A stretch of DNA of 64,000 nucleotides, taken from NCBI GenBank assembly GCA_965216565.1, contig OZ244170.1, positions 2,496,001 through 2,560,000 of the forward strand. Direction: 5' to 3'. Below, piece after piece: positions 17,688 to 23,729 of this stretch. Made by a program: the position numbers and the translations under genes. This DNA comes from Bythopirellula sp. (GTDB lineage: Bacteria; Planctomycetota; Planctomycetia; Pirellulales; Lacipirellulaceae). Positions within the stretch are counted from its first letter, which is position 1, and every line of letters starts with the position of its first letter. The notes beneath the pieces are model-generated. The model was not told the origin of the DNA and made no database searches. It saw nothing but the letters and a program-made list of their open reading frames with translations.

Positions 17688-17955
17688 TTCTCTCGGGCCC
17701 GGCGGTCCATCGGATCGCGGCTGTTTTCCAGAGATTTAGACTTTGCTTGCTCCTTCTAAATCCCCTTTGCTGCATTCACATTCATGGTGCATGCTTCGCT
17801 ACTTCGGGGTCATTTTCGGACGCGCCAAATCGTTCCATTTACGGACAGATTTCTGACGTCAGCATGCGGCTGGTTCATTGCAATTTAGGTGACGGTTTGA
17901 GGCCGTAGGGTGGGGCGTGAGATGCAAATAGCATGTATTCCAGACTCTAGCCCCA

Positions 17956-17983
17956 ACGTCCGATAATCATAGTGGAGTATGGC
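17956..17983 (+). other. Left junction (attL-like): XerC arm + hexamer + degenerate XerD arm
   Basis: ACGTCCGATAA TCATAG TGGAGTATGGC. Confidence 0.8.
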
Positions 17984-18085
17984 GTAAGCTGGCACTCATT
18001 CTAGGTTTCTCAGACCTGGACAGGGCAGTGCGGATCAGTCCCCGTGGGCGAGTCCGCACTGCCAATTTTCTAGGAGTGCCACTAG

Positions 18086-19207
18086 ATGTTCTCTATGAAG
18101 CTCAAGGACCGCGAGTCCTGGCTTGATCCGGAGTCTGCCGGAATTTTGGGGTGGAAGTTGGGTAAGCGTCTGTGGGCCCGTTGCAAGGGCCACGAGGGAC
18201 GTTTCATCACGCTCACGTACGATCGTAAGAATTACCTAGATGCCCAAGATTGTTTCGACAAGTCCAGGGCACAGAAGCATGTCTCTCGTTTCATGCGGAA
18301 GCTAGGAGCAGCTATCAATTGCGATCTGCGTGGTAAGTGGATTTGCAAGTTGGAGTTCCAAGAGGGCGGGTGGGTCCACTGGCACATTCTGTTGCTGGAC
18401 GTTGGTTACATTCCACAGAAGATCGTTCTTGATATCTGGGGTAAGGGCTTCATCCACCTTAAGCAACTCAACGAAGCGAATGCGATGTATCTGACCAAGT
18501 ACGTTGCGAAGGACGGATCGATTCCAGGTTTCGTATATGACTATCCGTCACGGAGCATCAAGGTTGTCAGAGCGTCACTTGGTTTTTGGAACGATGAGCA
18601 GGCGAAGAGAGCGAGGGAGAAGGCGGCTAAGAGCCGTCGTTCTACTCGTGCTCAACTTATGAAGGGAGCGAAGCGGGAAGAACAGTTCTATGTTCCGGTT
18701 GGTGAGAAGCTGCGACAAGAGGCAGTGTTGTTCCGAACTGGGAGGCGAACATTCTCACTTAAGTGCTCTCGTCTTAAAGTACTGCAAGCTCTTCGTAAGT
18801 ACTGCGGACAACCCAAGGTTGAGGGAACATGGCGACACTACGCAGATGGTGATCAAGTACTGGATCGAGTGGTAGTGGAGTGTGATCCGGCGAGGACGAG
18901 CAGCGTGCGGAAGCAATCGCCCGCAGCCGGAGCAACAGCTCCGCATGACACCCGACCACTATTCTTGAAAGGAACCGGTAATCGTGTCGGATGGTGGTTG
19001 GTCCTGGTAAAGGGCAAGTATCGTACTGTTAGCCCTGCTGACATTGCTGGCAGATTGTCCAAGTGGTGGGCTAAGAATGCTCCGTGGTGGACGCTGCAGT
19101 GGATCGAGCAGGAAGCTAGATATCAGCTTGGAATGACGATGCACGGACATTGGGGTGAACCCTCGGATGCTCGTCCTAATTTGGAGAAGGCCTCATGCAA
19201 TTACTAA
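18086..19207 (+). CDS. HUH rolling-circle replication initiator (Rep), copy 1
   Basis: Motif I FITLTY, motif II HWHILL (HUH) preceded by LEFQ..G, and motif III YLTKYVAK (two tyrosines). Confidence 0.9.
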   Translation: MFSMKLKDRESWLDPESAGILGWKLGKRLWARCKGHEGRFITLTYDRKNYLDAQDCFDKSRAQKHVSRFMRKLGAAINCDLRGKWICKLEFQEGGWVHWHILLLDVGYIPQKIVLDIWGKGFIHLKQLNEANAMYLTKYVAKDGSIPGFVYDYPSRSIKVVRASLGFWNDEQAKRAREKAAKSRRSTRAQLMKGAKREEQFYVPVGEKLRQEAVLFRTGRRTFSLKCSRLKVLQALRKYCGQPKVEGTWRHYADGDQVLDRVVVECDPARTSSVRKQSPAAGATAPHDTRPLFLKGTGNRVGWWLVLVKGKYRTVSPADIAGRLSKWWAKNAPWWTLQWIEQEARYQLGMTMHGHWGEPSDARPNLEKASCNY

Positions 19208-19857
19208 CAGACATTCAACGAGATTACCTTAGCTGCATTCATTCGCAATGGGAGAGATCAGCTTTGACGTTTTGTCGTAAGAAGCTCAAGGTGTCCTCTG
19301 AATTTCTTCGGCGAGATGAGTTCGAGGAGCATTGGCAAGCTGCGATGGTTGAGATTGCGTATTTAATTCAGCGAGGCGAGTGGGACATCGTGAAGGAAGC
19401 TGAACGTGGCAATGGTCGAATTTGCTGGATAGCTTTGCAGACGTTTTATCGTTCACGGTATGAGCATAGGTATATGGAACGTGTGCTCGCTGATTCTAAT
19501 GAAGCCCTAATCTCCTTAGTTGAGTCCGAAGAACCAGTTGTTGGAGGAATTAAAGCGTCGAGAGTTGTAAACGAATTAAAGATGTTAATATCTGGTCTTC
19601 CAGAGAAGCGTCGATTGGTGATGGAGATGCTGGTTGAAGTGGTAGAAGACGCTAGATTTGATTTGGATGACATGATGCACTGCGTGAAGCTACGCATACG
19701 TGAGGGACTGTCTGAACGTGGTTATGAGTTCACGCCGATTCAAGTACAGAACGCGTTGTTCTCGGGGCGTAAGCAACTATGGGAACAACTTAGAGAACGT
19801 GGCTTGGTTTCAGGTGAAAGACCCCGCCTTGGAAGAGGTGGCGTTGGAAGTAAGTAG
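19195..19857 (+). CDS. Divergent sigma-70/ECF-like helical protein, copy 1
   Basis: Region-2-like EFEEHWQAAMVEI...WIALQTFYRSR and region-4-like LISGLPEKRRLVMEM...QVQNALFSGRKQLWEQL. It overlaps the rep stop and has GGAG upstream. The ORF is convincing; the function is inferred. Confidence 0.55.
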   Translation: MQLLTDIQRDYLSCIHSQWERSALTFCRKKLKVSSEFLRRDEFEEHWQAAMVEIAYLIQRGEWDIVKEAERGNGRICWIALQTFYRSRYEHRYMERVLADSNEALISLVESEEPVVGGIKASRVVNELKMLISGLPEKRRLVMEMLVEVVEDARFDLDDMMHCVKLRIREGLSERGYEFTPIQVQNALFSGRKQLWEQLRERGLVSGERPRLGRGGVGSK

Positions 19858-19875
19858 TTTGGTTGTTTTCGTGTA

Positions 19876-20037
19876 GTTGTTGCACACTATGGGGTTGCCG
19901 CGTGAGATCGCGAAGGCGAGGCGGCGGAAGAGTTCGGTCCGTGTACAAGGGGCATGGAGAAGCTGAGCACGCCGCCTCGCCGTTAGCGACTCGGGGCAGT
20001 CGAACGCGGCAACAGGGTCCCATAGTGTTGCAACAAC
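19876..20037. other. Long imperfect hairpin, candidate single-strand origin (copy 1; copy 2 at 22749-22910)
   Basis: Nested inverted repeats GTTGTTGCA/TGCAACAAC, CACTATGGG/CCCATAGTG, GTTGCCGCGT/ACGCGGCAAC and GGCGAGGCGGCG/CGCCGCCTCGCC. Confidence 0.7.
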
Positions 20038-20060
20038 GGTTCATTTGAAAGGAGTTTGTA

Positions 20061-20348
20061 GTGTCTAATTTGTTTGGAGTTGCTAAAGCAGGTTTTGATA
20101 TTGTTGGGGAGGTCACTGAGGAGCGTATTCTTCGAAGTACCAAGGAGTCGGCCAAGGATTGGAAACAACCTGTGTGTAAGGTAGTTACAGCCGGCTCAAC
20201 TTTAGAGGTCCAACTAACTGAAGAACAGCATTCGCAGGTGTTGGTCGGGAATGCTTACCAGTTCGTTGGCAGAATTGCTAAGGAAGGAGGGAGAATCAAC
20301 CTAGTTGTTGAAGAATTAAGGAAGCTGGCGACGCCGAAGGCGTCTTGA
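20061..20348 (+). CDS. Small beta-rich protein, probable ssDNA-binding (OB-fold) protein, copy 1
   Basis: GTG start with a strong AAAGGAG RBS; 95 aa with an alternating beta-strand pattern (FDIVGEV, VCKVVT, TLEVQL, YQFVGRI, INLVVE); located in a Rep module. Confidence 0.55.
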   Translation: MSNLFGVAKAGFDIVGEVTEERILRSTKESAKDWKQPVCKVVTAGSTLEVQLTEEQHSQVLVGNAYQFVGRIAKEGGRINLVVEELRKLATPKAS

Positions 20349-20349
20349 G

Positions 20350-20595
20350 ATGAAGATTCGACCGTACCGAAAGGATGGATATCGCCGACGTCGGCGAGTT
20401 CATGTGAGGATGGACGAATCGTTAGTAGATGCAATGGATGAGTTGGCTAGAGCACTCTCGCTGAGTCGTTCGCATCTCTGTGATCTGATTCTCGGCATAG
20501 CTGTCGAGGAGGGTGGTGAATGGTTACGGTCCGCAATCAACAAGCGTGTAAAACAGGCTCTTAATCGAAAACGTGACAGCACTTTTCAAGAATGA
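20350..20595 (+). CDS. Ribbon-helix-helix (CopG/Arc-like) DNA-binding protein, copy 1
   Basis: RVHVRMDESLVDAMDELARALSLSRSHLCDLIL fits the RHH pattern. Confidence 0.8.
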   Translation: MKIRPYRKDGYRRRRRVHVRMDESLVDAMDELARALSLSRSHLCDLILGIAVEEGGEWLRSAINKRVKQALNRKRDSTFQE

Positions 20596-20828
20596 GCTTG
20601 ATCTTTGATGATTGCTATCCGTATGATTTTGGAAGGTCGTTCGGGGTGTTCCTGAGCGCGAGAGTGTCTGAGAAATCGACGCGCATAAAATGGGCCCACA
20701 TACTCTCTGACGGGGGAACATGTGAGCCCAATGATTAAGCACGTCACTGAAAGAAATTTCACATCCAGATGACGCATCTACATGATACGAAATCGTCGCT
20801 GCAGGGCAAAGCCTATTCGGTAGCCCCA

Positions 20829-20856
20829 ACGTCCGATAATCATAGTGGAGTATGGC
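20829..20856 (+). other. Internal junction, equivalent to attP of the circular form
   Basis: ACGTCCGATAA TCATAG TGGAGTATGGC with element sequence on both sides. Confidence 0.8.
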
Positions 20857-20958
20857 GTAAGCTGGCACTCATTCTAGGTTTCTCAGACCTGGACAGGGCA
20901 GTGCGGATCAGTCCCCGTGGGCGAGTCCGCACTGCCAATTTTCTAGGAGTGCCACTAG

Positions 20959-22080
20959 ATGTTCTCTATGAAGCTCAAGGACCGCGAGTCCTGGCTTGAT
21001 CCGGAGTCTGCCGGAATTTTGGGGTGGAAGTTGGGTAAGCGTCTGTGGGCCCGTTGCAAGGGCCACGAGGGACGTTTCATCACGCTCACGTACGATCGTA
21101 AGAATTACCTAGATGCCCAAGATTGTTTCGACAAGTCCAGGGCACAGAAGCATGTCTCTCGTTTCATGCGGAAGCTAGGAGCAGCTATCAATTGCGATCT
21201 GCGTGGTAAGTGGATTTGCAAGTTGGAGTTCCAAGAGGGCGGGTGGGTCCACTGGCACATTCTGTTGCTGGACGTTGGTTACATTCCACAGAAGATCGTT
21301 CTTGATATCTGGGGTAAGGGCTTCATCCACCTTAAGCAACTCAACGAAGCGAATGCGATGTATCTGACCAAGTACGTTGCGAAGGACGGATCGATTCCAG
21401 GTTTCGTATATGACTATCCGTCACGGAGCATCAAGGTTGTCAGAGCGTCACTTGGTTTTTGGAACGATGAGCAGGCGAAGAGAGCGAGGGAGAAGGCGGC
21501 TAAGAGCCGTCGTTCTACTCGTGCTCAACTTATGAAGGGAGCGAAGCGGGAAGAACAGTTCTATGTTCCGGTTGGTGAGAAGCTGCGACAAGAGGCAGTG
21601 TTGTTCCGAACTGGGAGGCGAACATTCTCACTTAAGTGCTCTCGTCTTAAAGTACTGCAAGCTCTTCGTAAGTACTGCGGACAACCCAAGGTTGAGGGAA
21701 CATGGCGACACTACGCAGATGGTGATCAAGTACTGGATCGAGTGGTAGTGGAGTGTGATCCGGCGAGGACGAGCAGCGTGCGGAAGCAATCGCCCGCAGC
21801 CGGAGCAACAGCTCCGCATGACACCCGACCACTATTCTTGAAAGGAACCGGTAATCGTGTCGGATGGTGGTTGGTCCTGGTAAAGGGCAAGTATCGTACT
21901 GTTAGCCCTGCTGACATTGCTGGCAGATTGTCCAAGTGGTGGGCTAAGAATGCTCCGTGGTGGACGCTGCAGTGGATCGAGCAGGAAGCTAGATATCAGC
22001 TTGGAATGACGATGCACGGACATTGGGGTGAACCCTCGGATGCTCGTCCTAATTTGGAGAAGGCCTCATGCAATTACTAA
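20959..22080 (+). CDS. HUH rolling-circle Rep, copy 2
   Basis: Translation identical to 18086-19207. Confidence 0.9.
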   Translation: MFSMKLKDRESWLDPESAGILGWKLGKRLWARCKGHEGRFITLTYDRKNYLDAQDCFDKSRAQKHVSRFMRKLGAAINCDLRGKWICKLEFQEGGWVHWHILLLDVGYIPQKIVLDIWGKGFIHLKQLNEANAMYLTKYVAKDGSIPGFVYDYPSRSIKVVRASLGFWNDEQAKRAREKAAKSRRSTRAQLMKGAKREEQFYVPVGEKLRQEAVLFRTGRRTFSLKCSRLKVLQALRKYCGQPKVEGTWRHYADGDQVLDRVVVECDPARTSSVRKQSPAAGATAPHDTRPLFLKGTGNRVGWWLVLVKGKYRTVSPADIAGRLSKWWAKNAPWWTLQWIEQEARYQLGMTMHGHWGEPSDARPNLEKASCNY

Positions 22081-22730
22081 CAGACATTCAACGAGATTAC
22101 CTTAGCTGCATTCATTCGCAATGGGAGAGATCAGCTTTGACGTTTTGTCGTAAGAAGCTCAAGGTGTCCTCTGAATTTCTTCGGCGAGATGAGTTCGAGG
22201 AGCATTGGCAAGCTGCGATGGTTGAGATTGCGTATTTAATTCAGCGAGGCGAGTGGGACATCGTGAAGGAAGCTGAACGTGGCAATGGTCGAATTTGCTG
22301 GATAGCTTTGCAGACGTTTTATCGTTCACGGTATGAGCATAGGTATATGGAACGTGTGCTCGCTGATTCTAATGAAGCCCTAATCTCCTTAGTTGAGTCC
22401 GAAGAACCAGTTGTTGGAGGAATTAAAGCGTCGAGAGTTGTAAACGAATTAAAGATGTTAATATCTGGTCTTCCAGAGAAGCGTCGATTGGTGATGGAGA
22501 TGCTGGTTGAAGTGGTAGAAGACGCTAGATTTGATTTGGATGACATGATGCACTGCGTGAAGCTACGCATACGTGAGGGACTGTCTGAACGTGGTTATGA
22601 GTTCACGCCGATTCAAGTACAGAACGCGTTGTTCTCGGGGCGTAAGCAACTATGGGAACAACTTAGAGAACGTGGCTTGGTTTCAGGTGAAAGACCCCGC
22701 CTTGGAAGAGGTGGCGTTGGAAGTAAGTAG
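22068..22730 (+). CDS. Divergent sigma-70/ECF-like protein, copy 2
   Basis: Identical to 19195-19857. Confidence 0.55.
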   Translation: MQLLTDIQRDYLSCIHSQWERSALTFCRKKLKVSSEFLRRDEFEEHWQAAMVEIAYLIQRGEWDIVKEAERGNGRICWIALQTFYRSRYEHRYMERVLADSNEALISLVESEEPVVGGIKASRVVNELKMLISGLPEKRRLVMEMLVEVVEDARFDLDDMMHCVKLRIREGLSERGYEFTPIQVQNALFSGRKQLWEQLRERGLVSGERPRLGRGGVGSK

Positions 22731-22933
22731 TTTGGTTGTTTTCGTGTAGTTGTTGCACACTATGGGGTTGCCGCGTGAGATCGCGAAGGCGAGGCGGCGG
22801 AAGAGTTCGGTCCGTGTACAAGGGGCATGGAGAAGCTGAGCACGCCGCCTCGCCGTTAGCGACTCGGGGCAGTCGAACGCGGCAACAGGGTCCCATAGTG
22901 TTGCAACAACGGTTCATTTGAAAGGAGTTTGTA

Positions 22934-23221
22934 GTGTCTAATTTGTTTGGAGTTGCTAAAGCAGGTTTTGATATTGTTGGGGAGGTCACTGAGGAGCGTA
23001 TTCTTCGAAGTACCAAGGAGTCGGCCAAGGATTGGAAACAACCTGTGTGTAAGGTAGTTACAGCCGGCTCAACTTTAGAGGTCCAACTAACTGAAGAACA
23101 GCATTCGCAGGTGTTGGTCGGGAATGCTTACCAGTTCGTTGGCAGAATTGCTAAGGAAGGAGGGAGAATCAACCTAGTTGTTGAAGAATTAAGGAAGCTG
23201 GCGACGCCGAAGGCGTCTTGA
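22934..23221 (+). CDS. Probable ssDNA-binding protein, copy 2
   Basis: Identical to 20061-20348. Confidence 0.55.
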   Translation: MSNLFGVAKAGFDIVGEVTEERILRSTKESAKDWKQPVCKVVTAGSTLEVQLTEEQHSQVLVGNAYQFVGRIAKEGGRINLVVEELRKLATPKAS

Positions 23222-23222
23222 G

Positions 23223-23468
23223 ATGAAGATTCGACCGTACCGAAAGGATGGATATCGCCGACGTCGGCGAGTTCATGTGAGGATGGACGAATCGTTAGTA
23301 GATGCAATGGATGAGTTGGCTAGAGCACTCTCGCTGAGTCGTTCGCATCTCTGTGATCTGATTCTCGGCATAGCTGTCGAGGAGGGTGGTGAATGGTTAC
23401 GGTCCGCAATCAACAAGCGTGTAAAACAGGCTCTTAATCGAAAACGTGACAGCACTTTTCAAGAATGA
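23223..23468 (+). CDS. Ribbon-helix-helix protein, copy 2
   Basis: Identical to 20350-20595. Confidence 0.8.
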   Translation: MKIRPYRKDGYRRRRRVHVRMDESLVDAMDELARALSLSRSHLCDLILGIAVEEGGEWLRSAINKRVKQALNRKRDSTFQE

Positions 23469-23701
23469 GCTTGATCTTTGATGATTGCTATCCGTATGAT
23501 TTTGGAAGGTCGTTCGGGGTGTTCCTGAGCGCGAGAGTGTCTGAGAAATCGACGCGCATAAAATGGGCCCACATACTCTCTGACGGGGGAACATGTGAGC
23601 CCAATGATTAAGCACGTCACTGAAAGAAATTTCACATCCAGATGACGCATCTACATGATACGAAATCGTCGCTGCAGGGCAAAGCCTATTCGGTAGCCCC
23701 A

Positions 23702-23729
23702 ACGTCCGATAATCATAGTTATGTTCGTT
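23702..23729 (+). other. dif: Chromosome dimer resolution site dif (also attR of the element)
   Basis: ACGTCCGATAA-TCATAG-TTATGTTCGTT has the 11-6-11 layout and ATAA-N6-TTAT core of E. coli dif (GGTGCGCATAA TGTATA TTATGTTAAAT). It is intergenic, and KOPS-like octamers converge on it. Confidence 0.85.

Follow-up and report, generated by a model that had tools for sequence, protein, structure and literature searches.

The 64,000-nucleotide stretch of DNA analysed in this study, referred to below as the window, belongs to contig OZ244170.1 of Bythopirellula sp. (assembly GCA_965216565.1, positions 2,496,001 to 2,560,000 of the forward strand) and contains a small rolling-circle element inserted at a dif site. 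The open reading frame (ORF) that follows the replication initiator gene (rep) of this element codes for a protein of 220 amino acid residues, ORF220. This protein is judged rather likely to be a highly divergent sigma factor of the extracytoplasmic function (ECF) type, with sigma2 and sigma4 domains, carried as accessory cargo in a variable slot of a 2873-bp dif-integrated rolling-circle element of the IMEX class (integrative mobile element exploiting Xer) and redirecting host RNA polymerase (RNAP). The features of the locus were as follows:

17948..20820, + strand, unit 1 of the rolling-circle element, an exact direct repeat with a period of 2873 that assembles as a 2899-nt (2873+26) contig in sequencing run X1
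17948..17973, + strand, attachment (att) core of 26 nt common to the element and the chromosome, comprising the XerC-side arm, the central region and one further base
18024..18063, + strand, palindrome of 40 nt after the att core and just upstream of rep, an inverted repeat with 11-bp perfect stem ends
18086..19207, + strand, rep, coding for a 373-residue HUH rolling-circle initiator with the motifs FITLTYD, HWHILL and YLTKY
19195..19857, + strand, ORF220, coding for a divergent ECF-type sigma-like protein of 220 residues (sigma2-like domain 1-92, disordered linker 93-119, sigma4-like domain 120-201, conserved tail 203-214)
19876..20037, + strand, imperfect hairpin of 162 nt (DNA fold −56.2 kcal/mol, z −8.3)
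20061..20348, + strand, ORF95, coding for a protein with an oligonucleotide/oligosaccharide-binding (OB) fold (AlphaFold2 model with a predicted local distance difference test, pLDDT, of 80.7; homologues in the loci L007 and L008 described below)
20350..20595, + strand, gene for an 81-residue ribbon-helix-helix (RHH, CopG/Arc-like) regulator (PF01402 RHH_1, E value 4.7e-4, at its cut-off; homologue in L007)
20821..23693, + strand, unit 2, an exact copy of unit 1 (2873 nt at 100% identity), with its parts placed by the ORF list at 20959-22080 (rep), 22068-22730 (sigma-like gene), 22749-22910 (hairpin), 22934-23221 (OB) and 23223-23468 (RHH)
23702..23729, + strand, chromosomal dif site ACGTCCGATAA-TCATAG-TTATGTTCGTT, restored at the right junction and with the two-arm layout of Xer sites

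The ATG of ORF220 was located 13 nt inside rep and was preceded by a Shine-Dalgarno-like stretch (GGAGAAGG), and 18 nt separated the end of the gene from the 162-nt hairpin. The 220-codon frame was intact both here and in the second, identical copy at 22068-22730. An earlier description of this locus made from the letters and their translations (the sequence-only reading) had reported a 220-residue ORF overlapping the rep stop, directly followed by a 162-nt hairpin, on a tiny rolling-circle replicon. All of these elements were confirmed. None of 200 shuffled sequences folded as well as the hairpin, and the unit of 2873 bp encodes an HUH Rep scoring above its family cut-off.

A HMMER search of 1.84 billion representative proteins returned six proteins at E ≤ 1e-3, ORF220 itself included, with four full-length relatives of 213-224 residues (E 2.7e-15 to 3.6e-9). 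A eukaryote-like protein of 1004 residues matched over 88 residues (E 1.2e-4) and was dropped as a chance match. The relatives, at 21-27% identity in the alignment, kept the length, both domains and 13 invariant residues, the invariant columns of the five-protein alignment including F43, W63, R192, L195, W196, G203, G207, R209, P210 and R214. ORF220 represents a real, conserved gene family and not a chance frame. The relatives are encoded on contigs of 2063, 2287, 2732, 3257 and 5755 bp, sizes compatible with small replicons. The C-terminal tail (residues 203-214, window positions 19801-19836) has the consensus GVVSGERPxIDR, of which G203, G207, R209, P210 and R214 are invariant; model confidence falls in the tail and no solved sigma factor aligned there.

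The family was rare in the collections searched. A word-indexed protein search found ORF220 alone and, with the alignment as query, two already known relatives. No member was detected in 400 other genomes of the phylum, tblastn with ORF220 remained without a hit among 50,697 phage and 72,556 plasmid records, and nothing was found in viral contigs with the family alignment or the single relatives P0003 and P0005 as queries. The viral-contig scan with P0004 matched one stretch, which encodes a relative of P0004. The metagenome match of P0003 (L006) proved to be a phage region matched in the wrong frame and was rejected.

The AlphaFold2 model of ORF220, obtained from a five-row alignment (pLDDT 74.8, predicted template-modelling score, pTM, 0.42), showed two four-helix domains (residues 1-92 and 120-201) joined by a disordered linker. 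When this model was compared with 48,161 chains by VIA-align, a structural search independent of Foldseek, 24 of the 25 top rows were sigma factors by title. Full-length ECF sigma factors spanned model residues 3-206, as in the case of SigL (Z 8.2, 144 residues aligned). Residues 119-206 of the model matched region 4 of sigmaE (Z 8.2, root-mean-square deviation (rmsd) 2.4, 69 of 69 residues) and of SigR (Z 7.6), and further CnrH, SigL and SigD, and residues 2-89 matched the N-terminal fragment of SigR (Z 6.9, rmsd 3.3, 76 of 78 residues) and region 2 of sigmaE (Z 6.4), followed by SigW and SigC (Z 5.4-5.5). The ECF sigma factors SigH and SigL occupied Foldseek ranks 1-8, with weak values (best E 0.054). 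The sequence-only reading had proposed a search for sigma2 and sigma4 folds with AlphaFold and Foldseek, and in the predicted model a sigma2 fold was present, with a sigma4 fold containing a helix-turn-helix (HTH) C-terminal to it.

At the sequence level, a profile of host ECF sigma factors was built from 24 of the 31 loci of the host genome that matched PF04542 (Sigma70_r2), the seven with frames outside 160-260 residues being omitted. The hhalign comparison of the ORF220 family with this profile gave a score of 38.2 (P 3.3e-5, probability 72%), with a colinear alignment of residues 3-212 against 27-217, while the controls (two reversed and 20 column-shuffled profiles) scored 9.2-20.9 with a best P of 0.021. 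By domain, the P value was 3.2e-4 for the C domain alone and 0.015 for the N domain alone. In the alignment, region 2.2 was matched by EFEEHWQAAMVEI, the WL..IA of region 2.3/2.4 by CWIA, the L..L....R of region 4.1 by ISGLPEKRR, and the recognition helix by TPIQVQNALFSGRKQLWEQL. The segments quoted as sigma-like in the sequence-only reading were thus placed in ECF regions 2.2, 2.3/2.4, 4.1 and 4.2. The insertion that it had noted in the middle of the HTH was recovered as about 13 extra residues, distributed over two gaps that come after the second helix of sigma4 and before the recognition helix, and shows in the model as a first HTH helix of 18 residues (157-174). Among the NCBIfam models, TIGR02937 (sigma70-ECF) matched one of the five members at E 0.0044, an ECF-type sigma model gave E 0.092 and ShbA E 0.19, all of them below threshold; sigma models made up three of the five NCBIfam families listed for the ORF220 family. 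The 30 nearest clusters in the ESM Atlas were unnamed, and the nearest ones bearing a Pfam family were Sigma70_r2, r4 and r4_2 at 0.94, which is taken as a lead only.

The complex of ORF220 with residues 1-420 of the host beta' subunit (25-row beta' alignment) was predicted with a score of 0.76, a mark reached by 116 of 157 solved complexes and by 2 of 215 mismatched pairs, and the best of three controls scored 0.00. At least 53% of the contacts agreed between runs, with a partner pLDDT of at least 69. The predicted interface brought beta' residues 253-315, the clamp helices, against residues 39-59, 2-17 and 93-97 of ORF220, and in this model it is the canonical contact of sigma region 2.2. 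Since sigma-RNAP complexes have already been solved, the score shows likeness and not proven binding.

Several results weigh against the assignment of ORF220 as a sigma factor. No Pfam sigma family matched any of the five members at E ≤ 10, the curated cut-offs of Pfam Sigma70_r2 and Sigma70_r4_2 and of NCBIfam sigma70-ECF were not reached by ORF220, and the host-wide PF04542 scan did not include it among its 31 loci. The best match in a profile search of the PDB was the unrelated EccE3 (E 0.3); PHROGs gave nothing for ORF220. The structural Z values, at most 8.2, lie within the chance range of helical models, in which Z values below 8 are common, and the model was built on five sequences only; the weight of the fold evidence lies in the consistency of the matches and the correct domain order and not in single scores. 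The score of the predicted complex may reflect the predictor's memory of the solved sigma-RNAP structures. In the recognition helix the window copy carries LFSGRK where the relatives have LRRAR or LRNAR, and contacts with DNA may therefore be weakened. A generic ECF-type promoter pattern occurred once in the element (0.62 expected) and two stricter patterns not at all, no anti-sigma gene was present in the element, and a sibling element, L007, manages without the gene. A scan for sigma70-type promoters gave five sites (2.5 ± 1.6 expected), none of which was assigned. As ORF220 fails curated sequence membership, it was placed in the sigma70 superfamily as a new, divergent family outside the existing ECF groups. 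The sigma-like character claimed by the sequence-only reading is in this way supported by the fold, the controlled profile comparison, the sub-threshold ECF matches and the predicted clamp interface, and not by the curated family thresholds.

The sibling element L007, found on a Planctomycetales metagenome-assembled contig, encodes a Rep 61% identical to that of the window and homologues of ORF95 and of the RHH gene. Its long hairpin (−62.5 kcal/mol, z −6.9) is homologous and occupies the same position, its right end is homologous too, and it abuts a dif site with identical arms. The slot between rep and the hairpin contains only an ORF of 81 residues, which was rejected as an ORF220 relative (hhalign probability 0.4). 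Since L007 lacks the sigma gene, the content of this slot varies between elements and the sigma-like gene is accessory cargo; and since L007 keeps both the hairpin and the integration at dif, neither the function of the hairpin nor integration by Xer depends on a sigma factor encoded by the element. L007 constitutes a natural control for the effect of the gene.

These data bear unequally on the other explanations of ORF220. The protein could be an ordinary DNA-binding regulator, or an accessory factor of Xer or Rep, that shares the helical HTH architecture and does not bind core RNAP, as would fit the failure of every family model to reach threshold, the moderate structural Z values and the invariant C-terminal tail that aligned with no solved sigma factor. 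Nevertheless, its N domain matched sigma2 specifically (SigR, sigmaE, SigC, SigW), the two domains stand in sigma order and the controls of the complex prediction scored 0.00, while integration of the sigma-less sibling at the same dif site shows that no such Xer factor is required. A regulator of this kind is considered unlikely, and the Xer accessory function offered in the sequence-only reading is not supported as an obligatory role. A different alternative starts from the position of the gene, 18 nt from the hairpin, and from the single-stranded DNA (ssDNA) that an element with an HUH Rep and an OB-fold SSB-like protein makes: ORF220, by virtue of its sigma-like fold and predicted core binding, would recruit RNAP to the 162-nt hairpin as folded in the single-stranded element and allow an RNA primer for the complementary strand to be made. 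The homologous hairpin of L007, found at the same position with no ORF220 relative beside it, must work with host factors, and no −35/−10-like motif specific to the sigma-bearing element was found. Priming by ORF220 is regarded as quite improbable, and recruitment of RNAP to the folded origin, also suggested by the sequence-only reading, is not supported as an obligatory role.

An equally slender chance is given to ORF220 acting as a decoy or inhibitor, which would have kept the clamp-binding surface of sigma2, lost promoter initiation, and would compete with the host sigma factors so as to throttle host transcription while the element replicates. The clamp-helix interface is the strongest in silico signal, the recognition helix of the window copy departs from the family consensus, and no target promoter emerged from the scans, all of which such a decoy would explain. 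However, the family as a whole has conserved the sigma4-like domain together with its TVK..L.RAR-like recognition helix, and the better profile score was that of the C domain (P 3.2e-4), which argues for a retained DNA-reading function. Finally, the absence of matches from the 400 phylum genomes and from the phage and plasmid records makes ORF220 an orphan in genome collections, as a decaying or non-functional remnant might be; yet its 220 codons are intact in both copies, its start is coupled to rep and preceded by a Shine-Dalgarno-like stretch, and full-length relatives at 21-27% identity have kept the length, both domains and the 13 invariant residues, so that decay is very improbable.

The preferred reading, that of a divergent ECF-type sigma factor, is based on features that were computed directly, namely a conserved gene, the order of the sigma2 and sigma4 folds in the predicted model, colinear similarity to the ECF profile, insertion at dif and a sibling without the gene. 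From these we infer the binding of ORF220 to RNAP, which has in silico support, as well as its promoter specificity and target promoters. ORF220 would be co-transcribed and translationally coupled with rep, and would therefore be made when the element activates and turns on its replication. The acidic helix 40-59, equivalent to region 2.2, would dock on the beta' clamp helices of host core RNAP, the C-terminal HTH would read a −35-like element, and the resulting holoenzyme would be redirected to promoters that the host sigma factors do not serve. The likeliest targets would be the promoters of the element itself, with positive feedback on the rep-sigma genes and/or the OB-RHH pair, and the RHH protein might act as a brake or repressor. 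Direction of RNAP to element promoters had been one suggestion of the sequence-only reading and is still the likeliest one, with the reservation that no cognate promoter was found in the scans. A private commandeering of host RNAP that goes beyond ordinary expression, either by priming on the hairpin or by switching on unlinked genes such as the assembly genes of a helper phage, is deemed fairly improbable; if it were true, this would be the smallest known mobile element bringing its own sigma factor.

The 28-bp dif site occurred once in the host genome. Of 151 genomes of the class, 110 contained its arms with at most three mismatches, against 2 that matched the reversed control, about 99 of these 110 genomes having exactly one copy and 11 having two, and a conserved dif site is thereby defined for the class. 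In runs X5 and X6 contigs followed the left flank, with 13 differences, up to position 17973 and then entered the right flank directly. These close relatives with an empty site establish the element as an insertion. The host genome encodes an XerD, which at 363.8 bits exceeds its curated cut-off, together with another Xer-like gene product (328.8 bits). The ORFs of the element encode Rep, ORF220, the OB-fold protein and the RHH protein, and a recombinase of its own is absent. An element without a recombinase residing in dif is of the IMEX type, and the one in the window is so classified, the use of Xer being presumed. The position of dif, at 2.52 Mb of the 5.21-Mb chromosome, does not coincide with an extreme of the cumulative GC skew (maximum at 1.4 Mb, minimum at about 3.9-4.2 Mb), which speaks against its placement as dif; the cumulative skew does not close over the genome, which means either that the chromosome has been rearranged or that replication does not drive the skew here.

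A search of the host genome (94% complete) yielded neither a Zot gene (PF05707) nor another copy of Rep. Should the element be a satellite, its helper is non-resident. Membership in the Inoviridae, the autonomous filamentous phages, was rejected, as the 2873-bp unit has no room for a morphogenesis ATPase (Zot/pI) and coat genes.

The att core was present in three exact copies (17948-17973, 20821-20846 and 23694-23719) spaced by 2873 nt, the third of which comprises only the first 26 nt of a unit and follows the two full ones. All four genes of the unit (rep, ORF220, ORF95 and the RHH gene) are on the + strand, with the hairpin between ORF220 and ORF95, and a strong positive GC skew (0.16-0.28) extends across the unit. 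In run X1, which holds the whole window, the 2899-nt contig of the unit had a depth of 36.9 and the flank a depth of 27.8, a ratio below the twofold value expected of a fixed tandem dimer, contig depth not being equivalent to copy number. The contigs of the public runs confirmed neither an episomal form nor the tandem dimer. Run X6, in which dif is empty, also contained a 186-nt contig of low depth about 90% identical to the start of rep (window 18116-18168), suggesting that a diverged relative of the element is present in that sample.

The Rep protein, in whose translation the HUH and two-tyrosine motifs were recognised, belongs to PF23343 (REP_ORF2-G2P; E 6.3e-15, 55.7 bits, cut-off 27.8) and matched replication initiators of PHROGs. 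Its only annotated relatives, from 17 phage and 59 plasmid records, were Reps of Microviridae or inovirus type and of small plasmids, which shared less than 60% identity with it across the catalytic core. The 40-nt palindrome at 18024-18063 is a candidate plus-strand origin or nick-site hairpin, or else an operator, possibly for the RHH protein; the 162-nt hairpin is a backbone feature and a candidate single-strand origin or packaging signal. The top VIA-align matches of ORF95 were LEF-3, PriB, SSB and RPA (Z 9.2-11.5), and each of its 28 Foldseek matches at E ≤ 1e-3 was an OB fold. ORF95 is probably an ssDNA-binding protein, judging from its model. The RHH ORF gave weak matches to PHROG repressors.

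More distant relatives of Rep were found in other surroundings. In L083, one of two such loci obtained from 400 genomes of the phylum, rep (35% identity) is followed by an ORF of 77 residues (1188-1418, + strand) whose product combines a signal peptide with a hydrophobic core and a basic tail. This product has no Pfam match and resembles an inovirus major coat protein, a likeness that ties the Rep lineage to filamentous-phage-like elements. In the other, L084 (Rep 37% identical over 130 residues), an ORF of 147 residues (2522-2962, + strand) overlaps the 3′ end of rep and encodes two HTH-like repeats, with a sub-threshold match to Sigma70_r4 (E 0.01, 15.8 bits, cut-off 24.1). It was rejected as a relative of ORF220 (hhalign probability 0.3), and gives a weak hint of a recurring arrangement in which HTH or sigma4-like genes follow rep genes of this kind. 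The locus L008 (188-3626; Rep relative at 40% over 210 residues) encodes a serine recombinase, an RHH/NikA-like protein of 182 residues and an OB-like protein of 100 residues homologous to ORF95; there the same replication module is apparently joined to a different integration strategy.

Host XerCD acting at dif is used by the TLC and RS1 satellites and by the CTX and VGJ phages of Vibrio cholerae. The V. cholerae IMEX elements and satellites likewise lack an integrase, occupy dif, have an att site in which the XerC-side arm and the central region are reproduced, form tandem copies, and encode a rolling-circle Rep and no morphogenesis genes. Unlike them, the element described here resides in a planctomycete, has four genes only, and one of these is sigma-like. 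The literature searched on planctomycetes and inoviruses contained, by title and abstract, no work on such elements, and as far as the searched literature shows this is the first Xer-exploiting element in planctomycetes.

The minus origin of Ff and the ssoA of rolling-circle plasmids also have a long imperfect hairpin on the strand displaced during rolling-circle replication, and host sigma70 holoenzyme primes on the hairpin there. Those hairpins are read by the host holoenzyme. The hairpin of the window is likewise conserved in L007, which has no sigma gene, and only adjacency ties it to ORF220. With regard to the control of unlinked genes, satellite P4 switches on the assembly genes of P2 by means of its delta protein.

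Chromosomes, large phages and larger plasmids are known to encode alternative sigma factors, and the plasmid- and phage-borne factors of the TcdR/UviA type are sigma factors of mobile elements. The literature searched did not describe a sigma gene for any IMEX, inovirus-like element or small rolling-circle replicon; in one paper on related subjects the sigma factor was that of a tailed phage. In a 2.9-kb element of four genes the sigma-like gene takes up a quarter of the coding capacity, an unusual cargo at such a size. If the preferred reading is true, ssDNA replicons and satellites of very small size do not just use sigma70 promoters passively but can reprogramme the transcription of their host, and the family, with five members in the 1.84 billion representatives, would be a compact and highly divergent group of sigma factors and a possible orthogonal transcription part.

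The closest known counterparts of ORF220 are the ECF (group 4) sigma factors, among them SigH and SigL of M. tuberculosis, sigmaE of E. coli and SigR of S. coelicolor, which also combine sigma2 and sigma4 domains through a flexible linker in about 200 residues. They provided the best structural matches and the colinear profile match, and docking on the beta' clamp through the equivalent of region 2.2 is predicted for ORF220. In contrast with them, ORF220 lies below every curated threshold, has a long first HTH helix and about 13 additional residues ahead of the recognition helix, ends in a conserved C-terminal tail, has no anti-sigma partner, and is encoded on a 2.9-kb mobile replicon rather than on a chromosome.

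Another divergent sigma factor of a mobile element is gp36 of phage phiEco32. The N-terminal domain of gp36 is sigma2-like and binds the clamp helices via acidic residues, the C-terminal domain is sigma4-like, and the protein redirects host core RNAP to the phage's own promoters (PMC12276001). It belongs to a tailed dsDNA phage of 77.5 kb and works with a partner, gp79 (PMC12276001). No sequence relationship between gp36 and ORF220 was detected by tblastn in the 50,697 phage records. The contact with the clamp helices predicted for ORF220 is the same as that described for gp36 (PMC12276001).

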